Source: a virus
Taxonomy: Duplodnaviria > Heunggongvirae > Uroviricota > Caudoviricetes
Direction: 5' to 3' (one strand)
Length of the DNA stretch: 35,714 nt
IMG/VR virus record: IMGVR_UViG_2734482773_000004
Positions 6,669 through 27,123 of this stretch are shown piece by piece. Made by a program: the position numbers and the translations under genes. Positions within the stretch are counted from its first letter, which is position 1, and every line of letters starts with the position of its first letter. The notes beneath the pieces were generated by a model, which saw nothing but the letters and a program-made list of their open reading frames with translations, was not told the DNA's origin and did not search any database.

Positions 6669-8885
6669 CTAAGCGGTAACGTTCTCCTCTTCTAGTTCGT
6701 CCATCATTTTTAAATAATGCATTTCGTCACCAGTAGCTGAAAATATTGTTCTCAATTGTTTTAGGTATTTATCTGGGTCTATGTCGCCCATATCAGTAAT
6801 ATTTACCGCATCAGAGTGAGAACCTCTGTTAATGTATCTGTAGAATGCTTTGAAATCACTGTTGCTATCGTCGCGTGCCAACTTTGTTAATTCATCTTGT
6901 AGAGCATCTGTTCTATGAACAAATGCAAAATAATATTCTAGTATGTTTCTCATAATATTAGGTATTATGATTTTGTTTGCTTTGCCATCTTTTGCATCTT
7001 TTAATATTTGCCACAAAGATTGATATTCATTCTGTATGCTGTTTTTTTGTATTTCAGTAATTATACTAAAATCATTTTTCGTTACTCTACCTAGATAATA
7101 GTTTTTCTTAAATAGTTTGTCTTCTCTGCTTTTAGGAGATAGCTTAATAAGTTCATGAAAGAAATAAAGATTGTGAGTAAGGATTAATACCTTCTTTGTT
7201 AATTCATTTTTTATAATGTGGTGATGAATAATTGATGCGATGTCGTAGACATAGTTTTGCGATAGACTAGATATTGGATCGTCAATAACAATAAAAATAT
7301 CCCTGCTATCGGTATCATTTTTATCGGTTTTACCTTTACAGCACTCTAAAAAATAAAGAAACGTTATTAGTGTTTTTTCACCTTCGCTAAGAGATCTATA
7401 AACATTTTGGTTTTTTGTATGCCCTGGTCGAGATATAATGTACATATCTTTTCTTTCTGCATGTTTTTCAATACAAAAACCAGAGATCCCTAGATTTTTT
7501 AAATGGGTGTTTATTGAGTCTATCGTAGAATCAATGTTAGATATTTTATCTCGCAATGCTTTTATTGTGAGATTATTTTCTTTTCCTTGTTGCTCAATAT
7601 TATTTAATTCATCATGAACTTTCTTTTTGATATCAAAGAATTTTTCTTTGTGTTTGGATAAATTCTCTAAATCATCGCTGCAAAAAGCATGGAGAGCCCC
7701 CCAAACTTGTTTTCCGATTTTATTCTCATACTCTTTGAGTTTTTTAACCTTATCATTTATGTCTCTTATTTTTTTGTTAACAGCGTCTATGCTTTCCTGA
7801 ACATGATTTTCTAGTTCTTTATCAATTTCTAATGTAACGCATGTTGATGGATTGTTGATCTTATCAATAATGTTTATTAAATTTTTTTCTGCAATGTTTT
7901 GCAATATTTTAATATTGGAAATAATGATCTCTTTATCTTTCTCATTGATTAGTGCACATGATGATATATTGTTTTGTATTTCGTTAAAATGATATATGGT
8001 ATTTTTCTCATAAACTGACTTTATATCTGAGAGCTGTTTTACTTTCTTTGAATAACTTTCGTCAAATATTGATTTAAGGGCATTTAAAAATTCGTGACTA
8101 ATAGTTTTTTCCTGACAAAACGGACATGTAGAACCGTCTAAATAATGTTCTTTACCTTTTTTTACCCAGTCAAGATTATGAAGTTTATTAATGGTTTCTG
8201 ATAAATAGCTATTGCTTGTATCTATTATAGGGGTTGCTAATGTATTTACATCATCAATTGATGGGGTATATGGGTGTAAAGGAGTTATTAATGCGGTTTC
8301 ATTGTTTCTATTTTCTAATAGTATAGAGTATTCTTTTGCTATATCATTTAAATTAATAAAGGTGATTGGTGAGGATGATTTTATCATCTCAAAAAAAGGT
8401 CTTTTATAGCCAACTTTACCTTTCATTAAGGTTTTTAGTACAGAGTTTCTGATTGGTTCTGTTTTTTTCCAGATCGATTCGATGTATTCATTTTCTTTTT
8501 TTTCCATTTCTGCTTCTAATTTCAATAACACTCCTTTTTTTTGTCTATATTGCTCTGTAAGTTGCTGTTTAATTGCTTCTTTTTTAATTAATTGTTTTTC
8601 AATATCTGCATTTTCTTTACTTAATGTAAAAACACCTTTTTGTTCCTGTGCATTGTAGAAATTATCTTCAATAAATTTAGTGTTGTAAACAAGAGGTTTG
8701 TAATTGTCAAGAAGGGTACATTCACACTCGTTATAATCTGTGTGTGTAGAGTCGTAGAAATAATTTGAAATGGTAGATTTGCCACAACCATTTTGGCCGT
8801 ATAGTATGTTTACTCTTTTTTCAAGATTCAGTATTGTGAAGGCGTCTTTCTTATAACTGGTAACATTTTTTAATCTAAGTTCCAT
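6669..8885 (-). CDS. Cargo: Rad50/RloC-like ABC ATPase with CxxC zinc-hook-like motif and putative C-terminal nuclease domain, 738 aa
   Basis: Walker A GQNGCGKST, long coiled-coil insert with CPFC, signature LSEGEKT, Walker B IFIVIDDP, H-loop LTHN; C-terminal R-x3-E...H pattern; AT-rich; in the A-cos variable locus. Confidence 0.7.
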   Translation of the reverse strand: MELRLKNVTSYKKDAFTILNLEKRVNILYGQNGCGKSTISNYFYDSTHTDYNECECTLLDNYKPLVYNTKFIEDNFYNAQEQKGVFTLSKENADIEKQLIKKEAIKQQLTEQYRQKKGVLLKLEAEMEKKENEYIESIWKKTEPIRNSVLKTLMKGKVGYKRPFFEMIKSSSPITFINLNDIAKEYSILLENRNNETALITPLHPYTPSIDDVNTLATPIIDTSNSYLSETINKLHNLDWVKKGKEHYLDGSTCPFCQEKTISHEFLNALKSIFDESYSKKVKQLSDIKSVYEKNTIYHFNEIQNNISSCALINEKDKEIIISNIKILQNIAEKNLINIIDKINNPSTCVTLEIDKELENHVQESIDAVNKKIRDINDKVKKLKEYENKIGKQVWGALHAFCSDDLENLSKHKEKFFDIKKKVHDELNNIEQQGKENNLTIKALRDKISNIDSTIDSINTHLKNLGISGFCIEKHAERKDMYIISRPGHTKNQNVYRSLSEGEKTLITFLYFLECCKGKTDKNDTDSRDIFIVIDDPISSLSQNYVYDIASIIHHHIIKNELTKKVLILTHNLYFFHELIKLSPKSREDKLFKKNYYLGRVTKNDFSIITEIQKNSIQNEYQSLWQILKDAKDGKANKIIIPNIMRNILEYYFAFVHRTDALQDELTKLARDDSNSDFKAFYRYINRGSHSDAVNITDMGDIDPDKYLKQLRTIFSATGDEMHYLKMMDELEEENVTA

Positions 8886-9388: not shown

Positions 9389-10423
9389 TCAGTCGTTGTC
9401 AGTGTCCAGTGAGTAGTTTTTAAAGCGGATGACCTCCTGACCGAGCCAGCCGTTTATTTCCCGAATCCTGTCCTGTAACGGGATAAGCTCATTGCGGACA
9501 AAGACCTTTGCCACTTTCTCAATATCACCCAGCGACCCGACGTTCTCCGGCTTGCCGCCCATCAACTGAAAGGGGATGCGGTGCGCGTCCAGCAGGTCTG
9601 CGGCACTGGCTTTTTTGATATTAAAAAAATCGTCCTTCGTCGCCACTTCACTGAGCGGGATAATTTTAATGCCGTCGGCTTTTCCCTGTGGGGCATAGAG
9701 AAACAGGTTTTTAAAGTTGTTGCGGCCTTTCGACTTCACCATGTTTTCGCGAAGCATTTCGATATCGTTGCGATCCTGCACGGCATCGGTGACGTACATG
9801 ATGTATCCGGCATGTGCGCCGTTTTCGTAATACTTGCGGCGGAACAGCGTGGCCGATTCATTCAGCCAGGCAGAGTTAAGGGCGCTGAGATATTCCGGCA
9901 GGCCGTACAGCTCCTGATTAATATCGGGCTCCAGCAGGTGAAATACGGAGCCGGGCGTGAAAGGTGTCGGCTCGTTGAAGGACGGTACCCACCAGTAAAC
10001 ATCCTCCTCCACACCACGGCGGGTATATTTTGCCGGTGAGGTTTCCAGTCTGATGACCTTACCGGTGGTGCTGTATCGCTTTTCCAGAAACGCATTACCG
10101 AACACCAGAAAATCCAGCACAAAGCGGCTGAAATCCTGCTGGGAAAGCCACGGATGCGGGATAAATGTCGAGGCCAGAATATTGCGTTTGACGTAAATCG
10201 GGGAGCTGTGATGCACGGCAGCACGCAGGCTTTTTGCCAGACCGGTAAAGCTGACCGGTGGCTCATACCATCTGCCGTTACTGATGCACTCAACGTAATC
10301 CAGAATGTCACGGCGGTCGAGTACCGGCACCGGCTCGCCAAAGGTGAATGCTTCCATTTTCGGGGCGCTGGCGGTCATTGTTTTTGCCGCAGGTTGCGGT
10401 GTTTTCCCTTTTTTCTTGCTCAT
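9389..10423 (-). CDS. Q: Portal protein Q, 344 aa
   Basis: Position next to cos, divergent from O; length equal to P2 Q. Confidence 0.92.
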   Translation of the reverse strand: MSKKKGKTPQPAAKTMTASAPKMEAFTFGEPVPVLDRRDILDYVECISNGRWYEPPVSFTGLAKSLRAAVHHSSPIYVKRNILASTFIPHPWLSQQDFSRFVLDFLVFGNAFLEKRYSTTGKVIRLETSPAKYTRRGVEEDVYWWVPSFNEPTPFTPGSVFHLLEPDINQELYGLPEYLSALNSAWLNESATLFRRKYYENGAHAGYIMYVTDAVQDRNDIEMLRENMVKSKGRNNFKNLFLYAPQGKADGIKIIPLSEVATKDDFFNIKKASAADLLDAHRIPFQLMGGKPENVGSLGDIEKVAKVFVRNELIPLQDRIREINGWLGQEVIRFKNYSLDTDND

Positions 10424-17549: not shown

Positions 17550-17694
17550 CCCGGAGACGAACGGCGATTTAAGTGCCGATATCCGACAGCTTGAGAACGC
17601 GCTGGCACGCTGTGCCAGCCAGGTAAAAATGATTAAACACTGTCAGGACGAAAACGATGCTCAAACCCGACAGCCTGCGCAGGGCGCTGACTGA
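17404..17694 (+). CDS. lysC: LysC, Rz1-like outer-membrane lipoprotein spanin, 96 aa, embedded in alternate frame
   Basis: Internal ATG at 17404 in the frame of ORF 17194..17694; lipobox LCAGC, Pro-rich; overlaps lysB 3' end and R 5' end. Confidence 0.8.
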   Translation: MKTKISAAGMALTCLMLCAGCTSAPPAPTPVIVHNACPKVSLCPMPGSDPETNGDLSADIRQLENALARCASQVKMIKHCQDENDAQTRQPAQGAD

Positions 17695-18124
17695 TGCCGT
17701 CACGGTGCTGAAAACTAACCCCGATATGCTTCGGATATTCGTGGATAACGGGAGTATTGCCTCCACACTGGCGACGTCGCTGTCATTCGAAAAGCGTTAC
17801 ACGCTCAATGTCATTGTGACCGATTTTACCGGTGATTTTGACCTGCTCATCGTGCCGGTGCTGGCGTGGCTGCGGGAAAATCAGCCCGACATCATGACCA
17901 CCGACGAAGGCCAGAAAAAAGGCTTCACGTTTTATGCAGACATCAACAATGACAGCAGCTTTGATATCAGTATCAGCCTGATGCTGACCGAGCGCACGCT
18001 GGTCAGTGAGGTTGACGGTGCGCTGCATGTGAAGAATATCCCGGAACCCACGCCGCCGGAGCCGGTCACCCGCCCGATGGAGCTTTATATCAATGGCGAA
18101 CTGGTGAGCAAGTGGGATGAATGA
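17657..18124 (+). CDS. R: Tail completion protein R, 155 aa
   Basis: Position and length as P2 R. Confidence 0.88.
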   Translation: MLKPDSLRRALTDAVTVLKTNPDMLRIFVDNGSIASTLATSLSFEKRYTLNVIVTDFTGDFDLLIVPVLAWLRENQPDIMTTDEGQKKGFTFYADINNDSSFDISISLMLTERTLVSEVDGALHVKNIPEPTPPEPVTRPMELYINGELVSKWDE

Positions 18125-18575
18125 GTTTAAGCGTTTTGAAGACCGGCTGGCCGGACTGGCTGAATCGCTGTCACCGTCTGGGCGTCGGCGACTGGCGATA
18201 GATATTGCGAAGAAGCTGCGCCAGCGCCAGCAGCAGCGAATTAAATTACAAAAAGCCCCGGATGGTACGCCGTATGTACCGAGAAAAAACCAACCAGTAC
18301 GTAATAAGAAAGGCCGGATAAAGCGGGAAATGTTTGTGAAATTACGCACTAACCGGTTTATGAAAGCAACAGGTAGCGAGAGTGCGGCGGTGGTGGCGTT
18401 TGCCAGCGGAGTACAACGAATTGCGCGAGTACATCAATTAGGGCTTAGGGATAAGCCGGGGCGTAATAGTGCTGTGGTGGAATATCCTGTTCGTGAGTTA
18501 TTTGGTTTTGACAAGGAATCTATACAATTGATAGAAAGGGAGTTATTAGTGATTCTATCGAAAGATGTTATATGA
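18117..18575 (+). CDS. S: Tail completion protein S, 152 aa, mosaic 3' portion
   Basis: N-terminus MNEFKRFEDRL as recalled for P2 S; DNA becomes AT-rich from about 18240, so the distal part looks exchanged. Confidence 0.85.
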   Translation: MNEFKRFEDRLAGLAESLSPSGRRRLAIDIAKKLRQRQQQRIKLQKAPDGTPYVPRKNQPVRNKKGRIKREMFVKLRTNRFMKATGSESAAVVAFASGVQRIARVHQLGLRDKPGRNSAVVEYPVRELFGFDKESIQLIERELLVILSKDVI

Positions 18576-19327
18576 GACGGGTGTTTGTGGATAAAAAGTT
18601 TTCCATTTTGAGAAAAAGAGTAAAGCATTCTCAAAAGAAAGTTATGGATTGTATTATTGCTGACCATAATGCTGATATATGTGTGTTATGCGGGAGTTCT
18701 GACGATATTACTCGTGAGCACATTATTCCTCAGTGGGCCTTTGAGTCAAATGCTGAAAAATCTTTAATTAATAAAAAGAATAATCAGTCAACTCATTACA
18801 TTAAAGCCACTGTACCAGCATGCAGAGTGTGCAATTCTGATTTGCTGGGAGTGTTTGAGTATAACCTGAAGAAATTTCTTACGGAAAAGAGGGGGGGTGA
18901 GTTAACAGATTATGAATATGATTGCATCATATGGTGGTTGCAATACATGGGCTTCAAGTTGCAATTAATGGATTTACGGACCCGCTTTCTCAGGTATAAA
19001 GGGGGTGATTATATCCCTTTTCTTGCAAACTTCCCGGTTGCAATGTTTTGGGGGGATGTCGATACGACGCCGGGGGATGTCTTCAGGATTATACGAAAAT
19101 CGCGACGCAATCTGATGTCGAAATGGAAGGATAAAAAACATAATTCTTTGATGGTTTTTGAAACATCAAACAAGAGTTTTCATTTCTTTCATAAGGTTGA
19201 TGAATTTATTTTTATTGAAATACCTCAGGTTAAGAAGGCGTTTTTCTTCTTTTTTAATAAAGAATTTGACAGCCATGATTTAGCTCATGAGGAGTGTATG
19301 AAGATTATAGAGAAGTGCTACAACTAA
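18572..19327 (+). CDS. Cargo: HNH-motif nuclease-like protein with unknown C-terminal domain, 251 aa
   Basis: CVLCG...REHIIPQW...N...CRVCN follows the HNH zinc-finger pattern; ATG overlaps S stop; AT-rich; occupies the P2 orf30 locus between S and V. Confidence 0.7.
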   Translation: MRRVFVDKKFSILRKRVKHSQKKVMDCIIADHNADICVLCGSSDDITREHIIPQWAFESNAEKSLINKKNNQSTHYIKATVPACRVCNSDLLGVFEYNLKKFLTEKRGGELTDYEYDCIIWWLQYMGFKLQLMDLRTRFLRYKGGDYIPFLANFPVAMFWGDVDTTPGDVFRIIRKSRRNLMSKWKDKKHNSLMVFETSNKSFHFFHKVDEFIFIEIPQVKKAFFFFFNKEFDSHDLAHEECMKIIEKCYN

Positions 19328-19336
19328 TATTTATTA

Positions 19337-19355
19337 TGTTGTGTCACAGCTGACA
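19337..19355. promoter_or_regulatory. Candidate late-promoter element upstream of V: TGTTGTGTCA plus palindrome TGTCA-N4-TGACA
   Basis: Decamer shared with the O upstream region; perfect dyad tgtcacagctgaca at 19342..19355. Confidence 0.4.
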
Positions 19356-19404
19356 GAATCCTCCATGATTGCTGCTGGTATCGTCCGGCGGCATCCTTCC
19401 CGTT

Positions 19405-20040
19405 ATGAACACTCTCGCAAATATTCAGGAACTCGCGCGCGCACTGCGCAACATGATTCGCACCGGCATTATCGTCGAAACTGACCTTAACGCCGGTCGC
19501 TGCCGTGTGCAGACCGGCGGCATGTGCACTGACTGGCTTCAGTGGCTGACCCATCGCGCCGGACGTTCGCGCACATGGTGGGCACCTTCCGTGGGGGAAC
19601 AGGTGCTGATTCTGGCCGTGGGCGGTGAACTCGACACGGCGTTCGTTCTGCCGGGGATTTATTCCGGCGATAACCCCGCGCCGTCTGCGTCGTCTGATGC
19701 CCTGCATATCCGTTTCCCTGACGGGGCGGTGATTGAATATGAACCTGAAACCAGTGCACTCACGGTAAGCGGAATTAAAACGGCCAGCGTGACGGCTTCT
19801 GATTCTGTTACTGCCACGGTGCCGGTGGTCATGGTGAAAGCATCAACCCGCGTCACCCTGGACACACCGGAGGTGGTTTGCACCAACAGGCTGATTACCG
19901 GCACGCTGGAAGTGCAGAAGGGCGGGACGATGCGCGGCAACATTGAACACACCGGCGGTGAGCTCTCATCAAACGGTAAGGTACTGCATACCCATAAACA
20001 CCCCGGCGACAGCGGCGGCACAACCGGGGGACCTCTATGA
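19405..20040 (+). CDS. V: Baseplate spike protein V, 211 aa from ATG 19405
   Basis: Internal start MNTLANIQELARAL gives P2 length. Confidence 0.9.
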   Translation: MNTLANIQELARALRNMIRTGIIVETDLNAGRCRVQTGGMCTDWLQWLTHRAGRSRTWWAPSVGEQVLILAVGGELDTAFVLPGIYSGDNPAPSASSDALHIRFPDGAVIEYEPETSALTVSGIKTASVTASDSVTATVPVVMVKASTRVTLDTPEVVCTNRLITGTLEVQKGGTMRGNIEHTGGELSSNGKVLHTHKHPGDSGGTTGGPL

Positions 20041-21830: not shown

Positions 21831-24149
21831 ATGAGCACAAAATTCAGAACCGTTATCACCACTGCCGGTGCAGCAAAGCTGGCAGCGGCAACCGCACCGG
21901 GAGGGCGGAAGGTCAACATTACCACGATGGCCGTCGGGGATGGCGGTGGTAAATTGCCTGTCCCGGATGCCGGACAGACCGGGCTTATCCACGAAGTCTG
22001 GCGACATGCGCTGAACAAAATCAGCCAGGACAAACGAAACAGTAATTATATTATCGCAGAGCTGGTTATTCCGCCGGAGGTGGGCGGTTTCTGGATGCGT
22101 GAGCTTGGCCTGTACGATGATGCAGGAACGTTAATTGCCGTGGCGAACATGGCCGAAAGTTATAAGCCTGCCCTTGCCGAAGGCTCAGGGCGTTCGCAGA
22201 CCTGCCGCATGGTCATCATCGTCAGCAGTGTGGCCTCAGTGGAGCTGACCATTGACACCACAACGGTGATGGCAACGCAGGATTACGTTGATGACAAAAT
22301 TGCAGAGCACGAACAGTCACGACGTCACCCGGACGCCTCGCTGACCGCAAAAGGTTTTACTCAGCTAAGCAGCGCGACCAACAGCACGTCTGAAACACTG
22401 GCCGCAACGCCGAAAGCGGTAAAGGCCGCCTATGACCTTGCTAACGGGAAATATACTGCGCAGGATGCCACCACGGCGCGAAAAGGCCTTGTTCAGCTCA
22501 GTAGTGCGACCAACAGCTCGTCTGAAACGCTCGCCGCAACGCCGAAAGCGGTAAAGGCAGCATATGACCTTGCTAACGGGAAATACACTGCACAGGACGC
22601 CACCACCGCGCGAAAAGGCCTTGTTCAGCTTAGTAGCGCCACCAACAGCGATTCTGAAACGCTTGCGGCAACACCAAAGGCGGTTAAGACAGCGTATGAC
22701 CTTGCTAACGGGAAATACACTGCACAGGATGCCACCACTGCGCGAAAAGGTCTTGTCCAGCTAAGTAGCGCCACCAACAGTGATTCTGAAACCCTCGCGG
22801 CAACGCCAAAAGCAGTGAAGTCTGCCTATGACAATGCTGAAAAACGTCTTCAGAAAGATCAGAACGGTGCGGATATTCCGGGAAAGGATACCTTCACGAA
22901 AAATATCGGAGCCTGTCGTGCTTATAGCGGCGCTTTGAGCACTGAAGCCGGAAACTGGACAACCGCTCAGTTTATTGAATGGCTGGATTCCCGTGGTGCA
23001 TTTAATCATCCGTACTGGATGTGCAAAGGCTCCTGGTCATATGCAAATAACAAAATCATTACGGATACCGGATGTGGTGATATCCACCTGGCTGGTTGTG
23101 TCGTCGAGGTCATGGGAACTAAATCTGCAATCACTATCCGAGTGACCACGCCGACAACATCAAGCGGTGGCGGTACAACCAGCGCGCAATTCACTTACAT
23201 TAATCATGGGGACGGCTACTCCCCCGGCTGGCGTCGTGACTGGAATCGTCAGGGCGACTCAATGACCGGAACGATTAATCAGGATGGCGGAAGCCAGAAT
23301 GCCTATATGTCTACGGCCTTATGTTCAGGCACCAGAGGCGGCAAAAAATATCTCAGAAAGTTTCGTGGTGGAGAAGGAGACACTATCTGGCATGAAACAG
23401 TACAGGGCGGGGTAGTTCGCTGGGCGACTGGTAATACTGATGCTCAGGAAGAATTATCACTCAGCTCCGCTTATGGTCTCCGTTCAAGAGGTGAGATTAC
23501 ATCAAGCAGTGCTAATGGTCTGCGCATTGCTTATGGCAATTATGGATTCTTTATCAGGAATGATGGCAGCAGCACTTATTTTATGTTGACTAAATCAGGT
23601 GACAGATTAGGCACTTATAATAATTTAAGACCACTGATTATAAATGATGCCACGGGTGCTGTATCAATGGGGCATGGCCTGAGTGTTACTGGTGATATTG
23701 CCTCAAGTACCAAAGTACGTGCCGGTAGCGGGAAAAAATTCACGGTCAGCAGCAGTAATACATCCACGAAGGAAGCCGCATTCAATTTGTGGGGCAACTC
23801 AAGTCGTCCGGTGGTGGCTGAATTAGGTGATGATGCAGGCTGGCATTTTTACAGTCAGAGAAATACAGATAACAGCATCACTTTTGCTGTTAACGGGCAG
23901 GTATCACCATCTAACTATAGTAATTTTGATTCACGCTATGTCCGGGATATCCGGCTTGGTGGTGCTGCCACATACAAACCTGCGAACAATGGCATGACAT
24001 GGACACATCAGGCACCGTCCGGGTGTGTATATTCCGGCATTATTGTTCAGGATACCGGCTCAAACTCTGCCGATAACATTGGTGGCGTATATTACAGACC
24101 GGTGCAGAAATACATTAACGGGACTTGGTATAACGTGGCGCAGGTATAA
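21831..24149 (+). CDS. H: Tail fibre protein H, 772 aa, with four tandem 44-aa repeats and a divergent AT-rich C-terminal domain
   Basis: Position after I; about 100 aa longer than recalled P2 H (669 aa), roughly the size of the repeat expansion; C-terminal half lies in lower-GC DNA. Confidence 0.88.
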   Translation: MSTKFRTVITTAGAAKLAAATAPGGRKVNITTMAVGDGGGKLPVPDAGQTGLIHEVWRHALNKISQDKRNSNYIIAELVIPPEVGGFWMRELGLYDDAGTLIAVANMAESYKPALAEGSGRSQTCRMVIIVSSVASVELTIDTTTVMATQDYVDDKIAEHEQSRRHPDASLTAKGFTQLSSATNSTSETLAATPKAVKAAYDLANGKYTAQDATTARKGLVQLSSATNSSSETLAATPKAVKAAYDLANGKYTAQDATTARKGLVQLSSATNSDSETLAATPKAVKTAYDLANGKYTAQDATTARKGLVQLSSATNSDSETLAATPKAVKSAYDNAEKRLQKDQNGADIPGKDTFTKNIGACRAYSGALSTEAGNWTTAQFIEWLDSRGAFNHPYWMCKGSWSYANNKIITDTGCGDIHLAGCVVEVMGTKSAITIRVTTPTTSSGGGTTSAQFTYINHGDGYSPGWRRDWNRQGDSMTGTINQDGGSQNAYMSTALCSGTRGGKKYLRKFRGGEGDTIWHETVQGGVVRWATGNTDAQEELSLSSAYGLRSRGEITSSSANGLRIAYGNYGFFIRNDGSSTYFMLTKSGDRLGTYNNLRPLIINDATGAVSMGHGLSVTGDIASSTKVRAGSGKKFTVSSSNTSTKEAAFNLWGNSSRPVVAELGDDAGWHFYSQRNTDNSITFAVNGQVSPSNYSNFDSRYVRDIRLGGAATYKPANNGMTWTHQAPSGCVYSGIIVQDTGSNSADNIGGVYYRPVQKYINGTWYNVAQV
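22350..22877 (+). repeat. Four tandem 132-bp (44-codon) in-frame repeats within H
   Basis: aaagg repeat anchors at 22350, 22482, 22614 and 22746 (period exactly 132); protein unit is approximately KGLVQLSSATNS-SETLAATPKAVKAAYDLANGKYTAQDATTAR. Confidence 0.9.
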
Positions 24150-24925: not shown

Positions 24926-25630
24926 TCATTTTGTTTTCATATCGTTTTTTAAGCTCTTCTGTTTGAACTCCAACCCATTAATATTCTCCATGCGAAAGTA
25001 AGTCAGCTGATGAATCACTTTCCCGTTAACCACGTTCCATGTAAAAACATTTTCGTCATACACTTTTGCTATTGCATATTCTTTATTATTCATGATAAAT
25101 ACTGTGAATTCGTTGCCGTGAACAGATGATCTACCCAGTCCTATAAAGGTAAGGGAAAAGAAGAAAGCAATGGCTGCACCGTTGAGAGCCTGAATACCAA
25201 ACTCTCTGATATTCCCTCTATCAAAGGAAGCATTTTTCTTTTCAACATGGATAGGTATCCACTGGCTCAGCAAGTGTAAAAGAACGAGCGCATTAAAAAC
25301 AAAAAGCAGCAGAATGTCGAGTGGAATGTTTAGCATGGAATATGCACCGGCCACATATACTACGCTTATCCCTAAATGTGCAGCGGCTCTTTTATGTTTA
25401 TCATCCTTCGCCCATATAAGAAAAGCAGTGGATATCGTCAATAAAGGAAATGAAAAAAGACATATACTCATAATGTCATTGCTTATCGTGGGAATGCTGA
25501 GAGTTATTAAATCCAACGGTATATTCAGCTCACTGGCGACCCCCCTTTCATAAAAATATACGGCGGCATAAAAAGCTGCCGTCAGGCCCGCTACAAATAA
25601 AGATTCTTTTTTTAAGATATAGTTGTACAT
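24926..25630 (-). CDS. Cargo: polytopic membrane protein (about 4 predicted TM helices) with small C-terminal soluble domain, 234 aa
   Basis: Hydrophobic segments at roughly residues 11-27, 45-70, 83-120 and 150-168; AT-rich; minus strand within the G-FI variable locus. Confidence 0.65.
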   Translation of the reverse strand: MYNYILKKESLFVAGLTAAFYAAVYFYERGVASELNIPLDLITLSIPTISNDIMSICLFSFPLLTISTAFLIWAKDDKHKRAAAHLGISVVYVAGAYSMLNIPLDILLLFVFNALVLLHLLSQWIPIHVEKKNASFDRGNIREFGIQALNGAAIAFFFSLTFIGLGRSSVHGNEFTVFIMNNKEYAIAKVYDENVFTWNVVNGKVIHQLTYFRMENINGLEFKQKSLKNDMKTK

Positions 25631-26157: not shown

Positions 26158-27123
26158 TTATTTGTTGGCATTTTTCTCTTTTCCGAATTTGTATTTTAGT
26201 TCATCTACTGTAATGATATCTATCTCAATTGGGAAATTGGCTTTACGCTTGATTTTTGAAATCAGCTTCATGAATGAGTTCGCTTCATTATAATTTTTTG
26301 CCGTGATTACATAGACAATATAGACTCTAAAGCCTTTAAAATGCCTCCAGCTCTCGTTGATCAAATCTAGGGTGCTAAGAATATTAGCGCTCTTCAGCGG
26401 ACTAAACACATCGATTTCCAAGAAAATAATTTCACCAGTTAAAACTCCATTGGAAATTGGAGGGTAATAAGCGCCATCAAAATTGTGATAACCGAATTCA
26501 TTTCTCATCTCGGTTTTGTCAACATCAAAACTTACATCAAGCTTAGATTCAGCATATTGAAAAGCCATATATGATACTTCATTACCGAGTTTTTTAAGCA
26601 TTTTCTCCTTCTTGTCAACAGTCTCAGAGACAGAATTCAAGGGGGAGGTCTTTAATGATGGGATAATGGTGCCTACCGAGAAATATTTGTCATCTTGTTT
26701 AGAGGACTCACTTTCTTGTCGACTGTTTTCATCTTTACCAGCAAACTCATTATTTTTAGGAGTCATTTCCTCTTCTAATATAGATACGTTTGGCACATCA
26801 TTTTTATCTAATGGGGAGGTAATGGATATACCCTGCAGACCTATCAAAGTCATATAGTTTTTCTCATCCGCAAAATCACTGGGAGCATAAAGGGACTCCG
26901 GCTTCTTATGGAGAGTGAAAAAAAATAGACTAACTAAGAATGTAGGGAAGAACATTAGAAAAAATATATATATTTTTTGATTTGGCTCGGATATCCATGG
27001 GAGTATTGCTGTACCGCTTACCTCTGCTAGCCCAGCAAACATTGCAATAATAGTTAAGGGGTTTTTTACTAATGAAATAGCACCAGCCATTGTCATATCC
27101 TTATAAAAATTCAAATAGCTCAT
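26158..27123 (-). CDS. Cargo: membrane-anchored protein (2 N-terminal TM helices, acidic/Ser-rich linker, C-terminal domain of about 150 aa), 321 aa
   Basis: N-terminal hydrophobic helices, low-complexity linker (EEEMTPKNNEFAGKDENSRQESESSKQDDK), AT-rich; minus strand within the G-FI variable locus. Confidence 0.65.
   Translation of the reverse strand: MSYLNFYKDMTMAGAISLVKNPLTIIAMFAGLAEVSGTAILPWISEPNQKIYIFFLMFFPTFLVSLFFFTLHKKPESLYAPSDFADEKNYMTLIGLQGISITSPLDKNDVPNVSILEEEMTPKNNEFAGKDENSRQESESSKQDDKYFSVGTIIPSLKTSPLNSVSETVDKKEKMLKKLGNEVSYMAFQYAESKLDVSFDVDKTEMRNEFGYHNFDGAYYPPISNGVLTGEIIFLEIDVFSPLKSANILSTLDLINESWRHFKGFRVYIVYVITAKNYNEANSFMKLISKIKRKANFPIEIDIITVDELKYKFGKEKNANK

Follow-up and report, generated by a model that had tools for sequence, protein, structure and literature searches.

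Horizontally acquired genes of P2-like phages are found at three sites, one of which is the orf30 locus (PMC3091744), and the old, tin and fun genes of these phages are exclusion genes (PMC9122126). Recent hotspot surveys centre on the old/tin and Z/fun sites; one survey places a hotspot downstream of GpL, 'within the tail genes' (PMC13586616), which may include the S-V site, where P2 has orf30. Of the complete E. coli genomes, approximately 30% contain P2-like prophages, and the hotspots of such prophages have proved to be a source of new immune systems. Among prophage-encoded nucleases, the McrA-type enzymes are type IV, modification-dependent HNH restriction enzymes, which are encoded by a single gene, act without a partner and have a second, specificity-type domain. 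The DefensePredictor study validated as defensive a protein named DS-7 ('SVIR'), in which an HNH domain is joined to a baseplate domain of phages (DUF2634), whereas its 'HNH1' candidate (301 aa, i.e., amino acids) was not defensive (PMC13092281). Here, we analysed a DNA stretch of 35,714 nucleotides (IMG/VR virus record IMGVR_UViG_2734482773_000004), further referred to as the window, which is a P2-like (Peduovirus) prophage of E. coli, and we focused on an open reading frame (ORF) of 251 aa located in it between the tail completion gene S and the baseplate spike gene V (18572–19327, plus strand, counted from the ATG at 18572).

The best explanation that we can offer is that the ORF encodes an accessory single-protein nuclease for defence or superinfection exclusion against competing phages or mobile DNA, a reading which we believe and doubt in about equal measure. 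The initial annotation of this locus, made from the letters of the DNA, had left a defence nuclease and a homing endonuclease as open alternatives. The evidence now leans to defence or exclusion, not decisively, because the Pycsar system occurs in the same hotspot, more than 80 homologues are chromosomal (some of them near defence genes), one copy lies in an integrative and conjugative element (ICE), and the family was predicted as defensive by machine learning. A homing endonuclease is less likely than a defence or exclusion nuclease. The nuclease activity, its target, the time of expression and a defence phenotype are our inferences. The S-V locus itself has been described before, and machine learning has already drawn attention to the family, which has neither a Pfam or NCBIfam model nor a solved structure to its name.

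The gene and the two parts of its protein

The ORF is a real and conserved gene under purifying selection. A search of 5.8 billion proteins returned 44 close homologues, none of them annotated, and an exhaustive profile search with the ORF gave 869 matches, 35 of which were at E<1e-30. Loci bearing the gene numbered 131 in a scan of species genomes and 51 in a scan of viral contigs. The median ratio of nonsynonymous to synonymous substitution rates (dN/dS) at the P2-type loci was 0.157, which is in the same range as for the genes R (0.148) and W (0.185). With 44 close homologues, more than 130 distant ones and a dN/dS that low, the ORF is not a chance frame. Disruption was found in two of the 59 phage-borne copies (L135 and L137). 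PHROG 10503, whose function is unassigned, matches the protein over its full length; no match was found in NCBIfam, in the PDB by single-sequence search, or above the Pfam cutoff. Truncated or frameshifted versions were also observed in some E. coli genomes and viral contigs (P0037, of 170 aa and with 23 member sequences, P0038 and P0202, besides L135 and L137), and their recurrence indicates that the gene is occasionally inactivated.

The N-terminal module of the protein (residues 37–92, encoded by 18680–18847, plus strand) is, judging from sequence comparisons, very probably an HNH_5-type nuclease domain of the beta-beta-alpha-metal kind. The HNH motif recognised in the initial annotation is indeed there, in the form of C37-V-L-C40-G, E49-H50-I-I-P-Q-W, N70 and C84-R-V-C87-N88, with six residues, and not eight as first counted, between CVLCG and REH. 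Our assignment is based on combined evidence, namely the invariance of the motif, the HNH_5 matches of relatives, the ranking of a profile against the PDB, and a published HHblits match. In the Pfam check, the protein's own match to HNH_5 (PF14279) scored 16.2 bits (E=0.01), which is below the curated cutoff of 27.5, and covered profile positions 1–21 only; motif invariance and transitive profile evidence spoke for the domain. Residues C37, C40, E49, H50, P53, W55, N70, C84, C87, N88, L92, W122 and K129 are invariant down to 25% identity in an alignment of 24 sequences, and the invariant columns correspond to the CxxC/[DE]H/N/CxxC[NH] signature. HNH_5 was matched by 22 of these 24 family members and, in a wider family of 300–360-aa proteins, by 21 of 22 N-terminal modules (best E=2.1e-8). 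When a profile of the N-terminal module was compared with the PDB, all of the top five entries were HNH nucleases, including 4h9d (E=0.016), in which both motif halves were aligned, and weak matches in BFVD repeatedly included HNH endonucleases. The HHblits match, given in the DefensePredictor table, is that of a family member to the Alw26I/Eco31I/Esp3I restriction endonuclease family, with a probability of 97.1 over 25% of the protein (PMC13092281).

The AlphaFold model of the ORF protein (mean predicted local distance difference test, pLDDT, 80; predicted template modelling score, pTM, 0.83) has a strand at residues 46–50, a strand at 80–84 and a helix at 85–105, that is, the expected strand-strand-helix order. 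An insertion of about 25 residues, peculiar to the family, separates the EH strand from the PAC..CN element. It carries N70, and a loop within it (residues 59–73) was modelled at low confidence. The wider family (P0118–P0192, 300–360 aa) is a much larger one, and its proteins share the N-terminal module only, with the pattern CxxC..EH.P.W..N..PCC..CN and a W-containing helix. All signature residues except N70 are invariant among them, E-H and CxxCN included. They are devoid of annotation besides the weak HNH_5 matches, and one of them, P0174 (595 aa), is fused to an OTU protease domain.

The unrecognised domain of about 150 aa, noted earlier behind the HNH motif, was borne out in Pfam and structure searches. 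It comprises residues ~100–251 (18869–19324, plus strand), with helices followed by a four-stranded sheet. Structure searches of the PDB and BFVD matched no known fold in this part, and the Pfam scan of the ORF protein revealed no modified-base-binding or other recognisable domain. It is also the most constrained part of the protein, with dN/dS of 0.095 for residues 101–251 versus 0.41 for the HNH half.

The S-V hotspot, the family and the mosaic S gene

The location of the ORF between S and V, as originally described, is confirmed by Pfam matches that identify both flanks, i.e., S (18117–18575, plus strand; Phage_tail_S, 5.5e-29) and V (19407–20040, plus strand, ATG at 19407; Phage_base_V, Phage_spike and Apex). 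V is the backbone gene of the right flank, and on the left the tail completion gene R (17657–18124, plus strand; P2_Phage_GpR, 1.4e-45) belongs to the backbone as well. The G+C content (GC) falls from about 0.59 to 0.31–0.43 across the ORF, the values for whole segments being 0.364 for the ORF, 0.543 for R and 0.596 for V.

The S-V site is an insertion hotspot. In E. coli ST2747 (locus L012, 2895–4797; NZ_CP007394.1) it is occupied by a Pycsar effector and an adenylate/guanylate cyclase, which are on the late-gene strand, with the first gene starting 16 nucleotides (nt) after S, so both the slot and the orientation are those of the ORF. Another recurrent cargo of this site in E. coli is a 414-aa 'ATP-binding protein' (L013, 2968–4212, and L014, 2968–4212, minus strand), for which the sole Pfam match is a weak one to AAA_22 (4.5e-5). 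P2 itself has orf30 there, on the opposite strand and behind the O-operon terminator. In some carriers of the ORF an additional gene is found between it and V (L128, 6846–7664, minus strand, 272 aa; L018, 8785–9828, plus strand, 347 aa). Both of the encoded proteins are unrelated to the ORF and have hydrophobic, membrane-like stretches. Several cargo genes are therefore stacked in the hotspot of these carriers.

A tblastn search of 50,697 phage records, P2 (NC_001895) among them, found the ORF only in phage R18C, with 97% identity. In complete E. coli genomes it was found in 79 places in 77 genomes. Of 5426 E. coli genomes, 1600 contain the backbone segment covering R and the 5' part of S (17657–18190), which is present at 1823 places in total; the share of E. 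coli P2-like prophages that carry the ORF is therefore about 4%. All but one of the copies with at least 46% identity lie at R-S-[ORF]-V, on the same strand, in P2-like elements; the R, S, W and J proteins of these elements show no more than 51–83% identity to those of the window. The exception (L011, 6001–6744; Erwinia sp. S59, JACVUN010000019.1) has no S gene and resides in an ICE, where it is preceded by TraG_N and followed by an integrase and a 1087-aa KAP NTPase. This copy, 62–73% identical, nests in the phage clade, with 72–73% identity to the copies of the Klebsiella type, which speaks for passage of the gene between a P2-like phage and an ICE. The ORF is thus mobile between types of elements.

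The copies with at most 42% identity are standalone chromosomal genes, none of them in P2 context, and their hosts include Vibrio, Shewanella, Flavobacterium, Chryseobacterium, Pedobacter, Desulfobulbaceae and Gracilibacteria. The family therefore spans Proteobacteria, Bacteroidota, Desulfobacterota and bacteria of the candidate phyla radiation (CPR). No conserved neighbour or partner gene was found among 81 non-P2 loci, which indicates that the protein is a self-sufficient, single-gene module. Some distant copies lie in clear defence neighbourhoods, with AbiEii, type I restriction-modification and AAA_13 genes or with HicAB. Among 144 flanking ORFs of 37 loci there were two Mrr_cat, two GmrSD_N, NA-iREase1, ThsA, LmuA and PDC/HEC candidates, as well as conjugation genes. 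On raw counts, the share of defence genes among these ORFs looks raised.

We also compared pairwise identities across 41 distinct P2-type loci. The identity of the ORF correlated with that of R, W and J with Spearman coefficients of 0.66–0.71, the core genes among themselves giving 0.65–0.85, and the between-group identity was 63% for the ORF and 64–66% for R, S and W. This co-divergence with the backbone makes the ORF an old resident of the S-V slot in part of the P2-like radiation. It appears to have entered the P2 lineage of E. coli by recombination, and on a single occasion.

For the S gene, nucleotide identity to comparators was calculated in 30-nt windows. The initial annotation had placed the start of an AT-rich block, and with it a single breakpoint, near 18240. 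Instead, there are two nested junctions, at ~18177 and at ~18390–18444. The proximal segment of S (18117–18176, plus strand; GC 0.533) is of P2 type, with 87–100% identity to P2 and L-413C. The middle segment, which we call allele B (18177–18386, plus strand; GC 0.495), is only 40–73% identical to these two phages and 93–100% identical to S of E. coli prophages that have Pycsar (L012) or the 414-aa ATP-binding protein (L013, L014) at S-V. The distal segment (18387–18575, plus strand; GC 0.434), co-inherited with the ORF, begins with a transition zone (18387–18443). Its remainder (18444–18575, approximately the last 44 codons and the stop) is specific to ORF carriers, with 33–63% identity to all comparators, and the tail of the S protein, 'IQLIERELL', resembles that of S in other ORF-carrying phages. 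The full variant of 18200–18571 was present in 79 E. coli genomes and the ORF in 77, and 18 further genomes share the proximal part of the variant only. On the right side, high identity to the ORF-less L-413C is back by ~19372.

The cargo-linked junction is therefore the one at ~18390–18444, and that near 18177 is a separate recombination scar, not specific to the ORF. Each type of S-V cargo comes with its own S C-terminus, and since allele B flanks unrelated cargo too, the mosaicism of S is a general property of the hotspot. The earlier idea that distal S arrived together with the cargo holds in so far as this part is unlike P2 and has been inherited together with the ORF; however, the ORF is not simply a recent AT-rich acquisition. 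Three outcomes had been named beforehand as speaking against the initial annotation, and none of them was observed: an HNH profile is matched within the family, homologues that home with introns or inteins did not turn up, and the alignment of S genes is not uniformly P2-like in its 3' region.

Expression and the weighing of explanations

The proposed coupling of the ORF to S is physically in place, as the two genes abut and no terminator is predicted between them. The overlap of the ATG with the S stop codon does exist at 18572 in the form of ATGA; however, it is not kept in homologues. The start conserved among them corresponds to 18587, 15 nt further downstream, and gives a protein of 246 aa ('MDKKF...'). 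This codon is GTG in the window and ATG in most homologues, and it was chosen both by PGAP and by the annotators of phage R18C. The start codon of relatives lies 0–12 nt past the S stop, so it is the abutment to S, and not the exact overlap, that is conserved. Neither 18572 nor 18587 has a good Shine-Dalgarno sequence, as read from the letters, which fits translational coupling to S. Scans predicted neither a sigma-70-like promoter upstream of the ORF nor a terminator on either side of it, towards S or past its end. By eye, a perfect -35 element (TTGACA) can be seen in distal S at 18508–18513, 59 nt ahead of the ATG at 18572, followed after an 18-nt spacer by a poor -10, TAGAAA. It could give low expression in the lysogen; we do not count it as evidence, because the codons in which it lies (F-D-K) are not conserved in other carriers. 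Downstream of the ORF, the stretch 19336–19363 (plus strand) aligns with the annotated activator-binding site of the late pV promoter of P2 (misc_feature 10239–10266); its GTTGT core is invariant in all five loci compared, and on this likeness it would act as the activator-binding site here as well.

The prediction of a defence function comes from DefensePredictor. Table S10 of that study includes the ORF of E. coli 2009C-3133, under the accession WP_224479633.1, among its predicted novel defence genes; the log-odds is 5.77, the stringent cutoff being 4 (PMC13092281). Our literature search for family accessions found no mention in the texts of papers and one in a supplementary table. Several observations weigh against a nuclease that defends the lysogen. 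The family is absent from the 118 units cloned in the DefensePredictor study, and the validation rate in that study was 45% (PMC13092281). The ORF protein gave no PADLOC match better than PDC-M01B at E=0.036; among its relatives, a single protein matched PDC-M01B at 1e-5 and the others had no match. The distant copies are in many cases flanked by housekeeping genes. To the sub-cutoff HNH_5 score one should add that structure searches of the ORF protein in the PDB and BFVD yielded no significant fold match. The backbone-like co-divergence and rate of the ORF are unlike the defence cargo of P2, which turns over rapidly (correlation of at most 0.2; PMC13586616). Finally, the late-gene strand, the abutment to S and the lack of a predicted promoter or terminator fit late lytic expression better than constitutive expression in the lysogen.

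Some of these observations can be explained in another way, by a late-expressed nuclease which works in the phage's own lytic cycle as a quasi-core gene of one P2-like sub-lineage, is transcribed from the O operon and leaves the lysogen unprotected; possible roles are degradation of host DNA, or of the DNA of co-resident competitors or P4-like satellites, late in development. We find this explanation unlikely, but it is one to be taken seriously. The conserved slot with the start 0–12 nt past the S stop in all but one of the copies with at least 46% identity, the lack of predicted signals between the two genes, the co-divergence and rate shared with R, S and W, the dN/dS at the level of tail genes and the rarity of disrupted copies all agree with it. 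On the other hand, the presence of the ORF in about 4% of E. coli P2-like prophages and its absence from P2, L-413C and most relatives indicate that it is dispensable, and the same gene is found outside phages, in an ICE and at more than 80 chromosomal loci. Moreover, Pycsar, a bona fide defence system, occupies the same slot in the same orientation, so this arrangement does not imply a role in the lytic cycle.

The sporadic occurrence of the ORF at one fixed site between conserved essential genes of divergent phages, its tight link to a private distal-S sequence and the HNH motif are all features that a free-standing HNH homing endonuclease would have. Such an enzyme would cut the ORF-less S-V allele of related phages when two phages infect together or a phage meets a prophage, repair would copy the ORF in and co-convert distal S, and carriers would be protected from cutting by their divergent distal S. 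Co-orientation with late genes is compatible with this too, as many free-standing homing genes of T4 are oriented in the same way. We nevertheless consider homing improbable. All E. coli carriers share the upstream allele B of S (79 versus 77 genomes), with no spectrum of co-conversion tracts in P2-type S, and a single haplotype of this kind points to one introduction followed by ordinary recombination. In addition, allele B also flanks unrelated cargo, Pfam detected no NUMOD, IENR1, AP2 or other homing DNA-binding module in the ORF and its relatives, the more than 80 standalone chromosomal homologues lie in variable contexts that are not phages, introns or inteins, and a frequency of about 4% is low. 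More improbable still is that the protein does not cut DNA at all and is a zinc-binding protein with a structural zinc ribbon, e.g., a DNA- or protein-binding regulator or inhibitor acting as an anti-defence or exclusion factor. The HNH_5 match confined to the first 21 profile positions, the lack of confirmation of a nuclease fold in the PDB and BFVD, the low-confidence model of the catalytic loop (residues 59–73) and the stronger constraint on the C-terminal domain would suit it. However, E49, H50, N70 and N88 are invariant to 25% identity, and these are residues that one expects in catalysis and metal binding, whereas a zinc ribbon does not need them; the same is true of E-H and C-x-x-C-N across the wider family, and relatives reach 2.1e-8 with HNH_5.

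We thus return to an accessory nuclease for defence or exclusion. According to this proposal, the ORF would be an accessory ('moron') gene in the S-V hotspot with a self-sufficient nuclease as its product. The zinc-stabilised HNH_5-type module would use H50 as the general base and N88 as a metal ligand, with N70 as the structural Asn, and the C-terminal alpha/beta domain, novel and constrained, would serve to recognise the target or to regulate the enzyme. By cutting DNA, the nuclease would protect the lysogen, or the phage, from rivals. Expression would occur by read-through from the late O operon, with translation coupled to S; expression in the lysogen would require an internal promoter in the AT-rich distal S. 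As a sub-hypothesis, the protein may be a McrA-like, partner-less enzyme that spares self DNA. Its action would then depend on something particular to foreign DNA, for instance a modified base or an intermediate of replication or packaging, and this dependence would explain the absence of an immunity partner. A bolder version, which we regard as rather doubtful, is that of a new class of single-protein nuclease with a C-terminal sensor of an unseen fold, kept for a long time as an S-coupled late gene against co-resident competitors (P4-like satellites and superinfecting phages). If true, the ORF would be a weapon serving the phage, with core-gene-like inheritance, and not a fast-swapping defence of the lysogen.

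Other cargo of the prophage and comparison with known systems

The window contains further AT-rich islands. A very AT-rich one (GC 0.27–0.34), apparently at the old/tin hotspot of P2 (gpA-gpQ), bears a 738-aa ORF (6669–8885, minus strand) that matches the PADLOC candidate PDC-S06 over its full length (1.6e-254) and Pfam AAA_13 (2.8e-111); with the PDC-S06 match, the prophage has a second candidate defence gene. A third island (GC 0.36–0.45), past the tail-fibre genes, appears to be in the position of the Z/fun hotspot of P2. Its ORFs of 234 aa (24926–25630, minus strand) and 321 aa (26158–27123, minus strand) had no match in Pfam or PADLOC. The tail fibre gene H (21831–24149, plus strand) encodes four near-identical tandem copies of a unit of about 46 aa, '...KGLVQLSSATNS.SETLAATPKAVK.AYDLANGKYTAQDATTAR...'.

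The S-V site is far less studied than old/tin and Z/fun, and it is now seen with Pycsar, an ATPase gene and the nuclease family of the ORF. Backbone-like inheritance and coupling to a late operon are unusual for defence cargo, and they bear on the question of whether some 'defence' genes mainly serve the phage. A minimal HNH effector joined to a constrained domain would, if the latter is a sensor, also be a compact model of discrimination of foreign DNA by one protein.

With regard to known nucleases, HNH_5 enzymes such as 4h9d are similar to the ORF in the CxxC and [DE]H elements followed by P-A-C-x-x-C-N, so only the small catalytic core is common; the ORF differs by the insertion of about 25 aa and by the extra C-terminal domain of about 150 aa. 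The type IIS enzymes of the Alw26I/Eco31I/Esp3I family are alike in the HNH catalytic domain, according to the published HHblits match, whereas the ORF has no methyltransferase partner nearby. McrA-type enzymes resemble it as single, partner-less prophage HNH proteins of about 250–280 aa with two domains, a likeness that would be one of mechanism only. Distant copies of the ORF adjoin Mrr_cat, GmrSD_N and mREase_IV genes. The differences are that the HNH domain of the ORF is N-terminal, i.e., the order of domains is reversed, and that PADLOC gave no mREase_IV match. An HNH protein associated with the terminase, like HK97 gp74, was ruled out by position, as the terminase is about 6 kb away in related loci.

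Among the genes of P2-like phages, the ORF is comparable to orf30, old, tin and Z/fun as AT-rich, dispensable cargo at a documented site of horizontal gene transfer. It is joined to the late operon, unlike P2 orf30 on the opposite strand behind the terminator. Homology to P2 Orf30 was ruled out, since tblastn matched only R18C even though P2 was in the collection. Free-standing homing enzymes, i.e., the Mob proteins of T4 and I-HmuI, share with the ORF the HNH motif, the sporadic presence at a fixed site and the linked polymorphism of the flank. The ORF differs from them in having no homing-type DNA-binding modules, in its chromosomal homologues and in the single S haplotype of E. coli. DS-7, compared by description, is likewise a prophage HNH protein tied to tail or baseplate genes; it is a 368-aa fusion, whereas the ORF is a separate gene. 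It provides a precedent that HNH nucleases embedded in the tail modules of prophages can be defensive.

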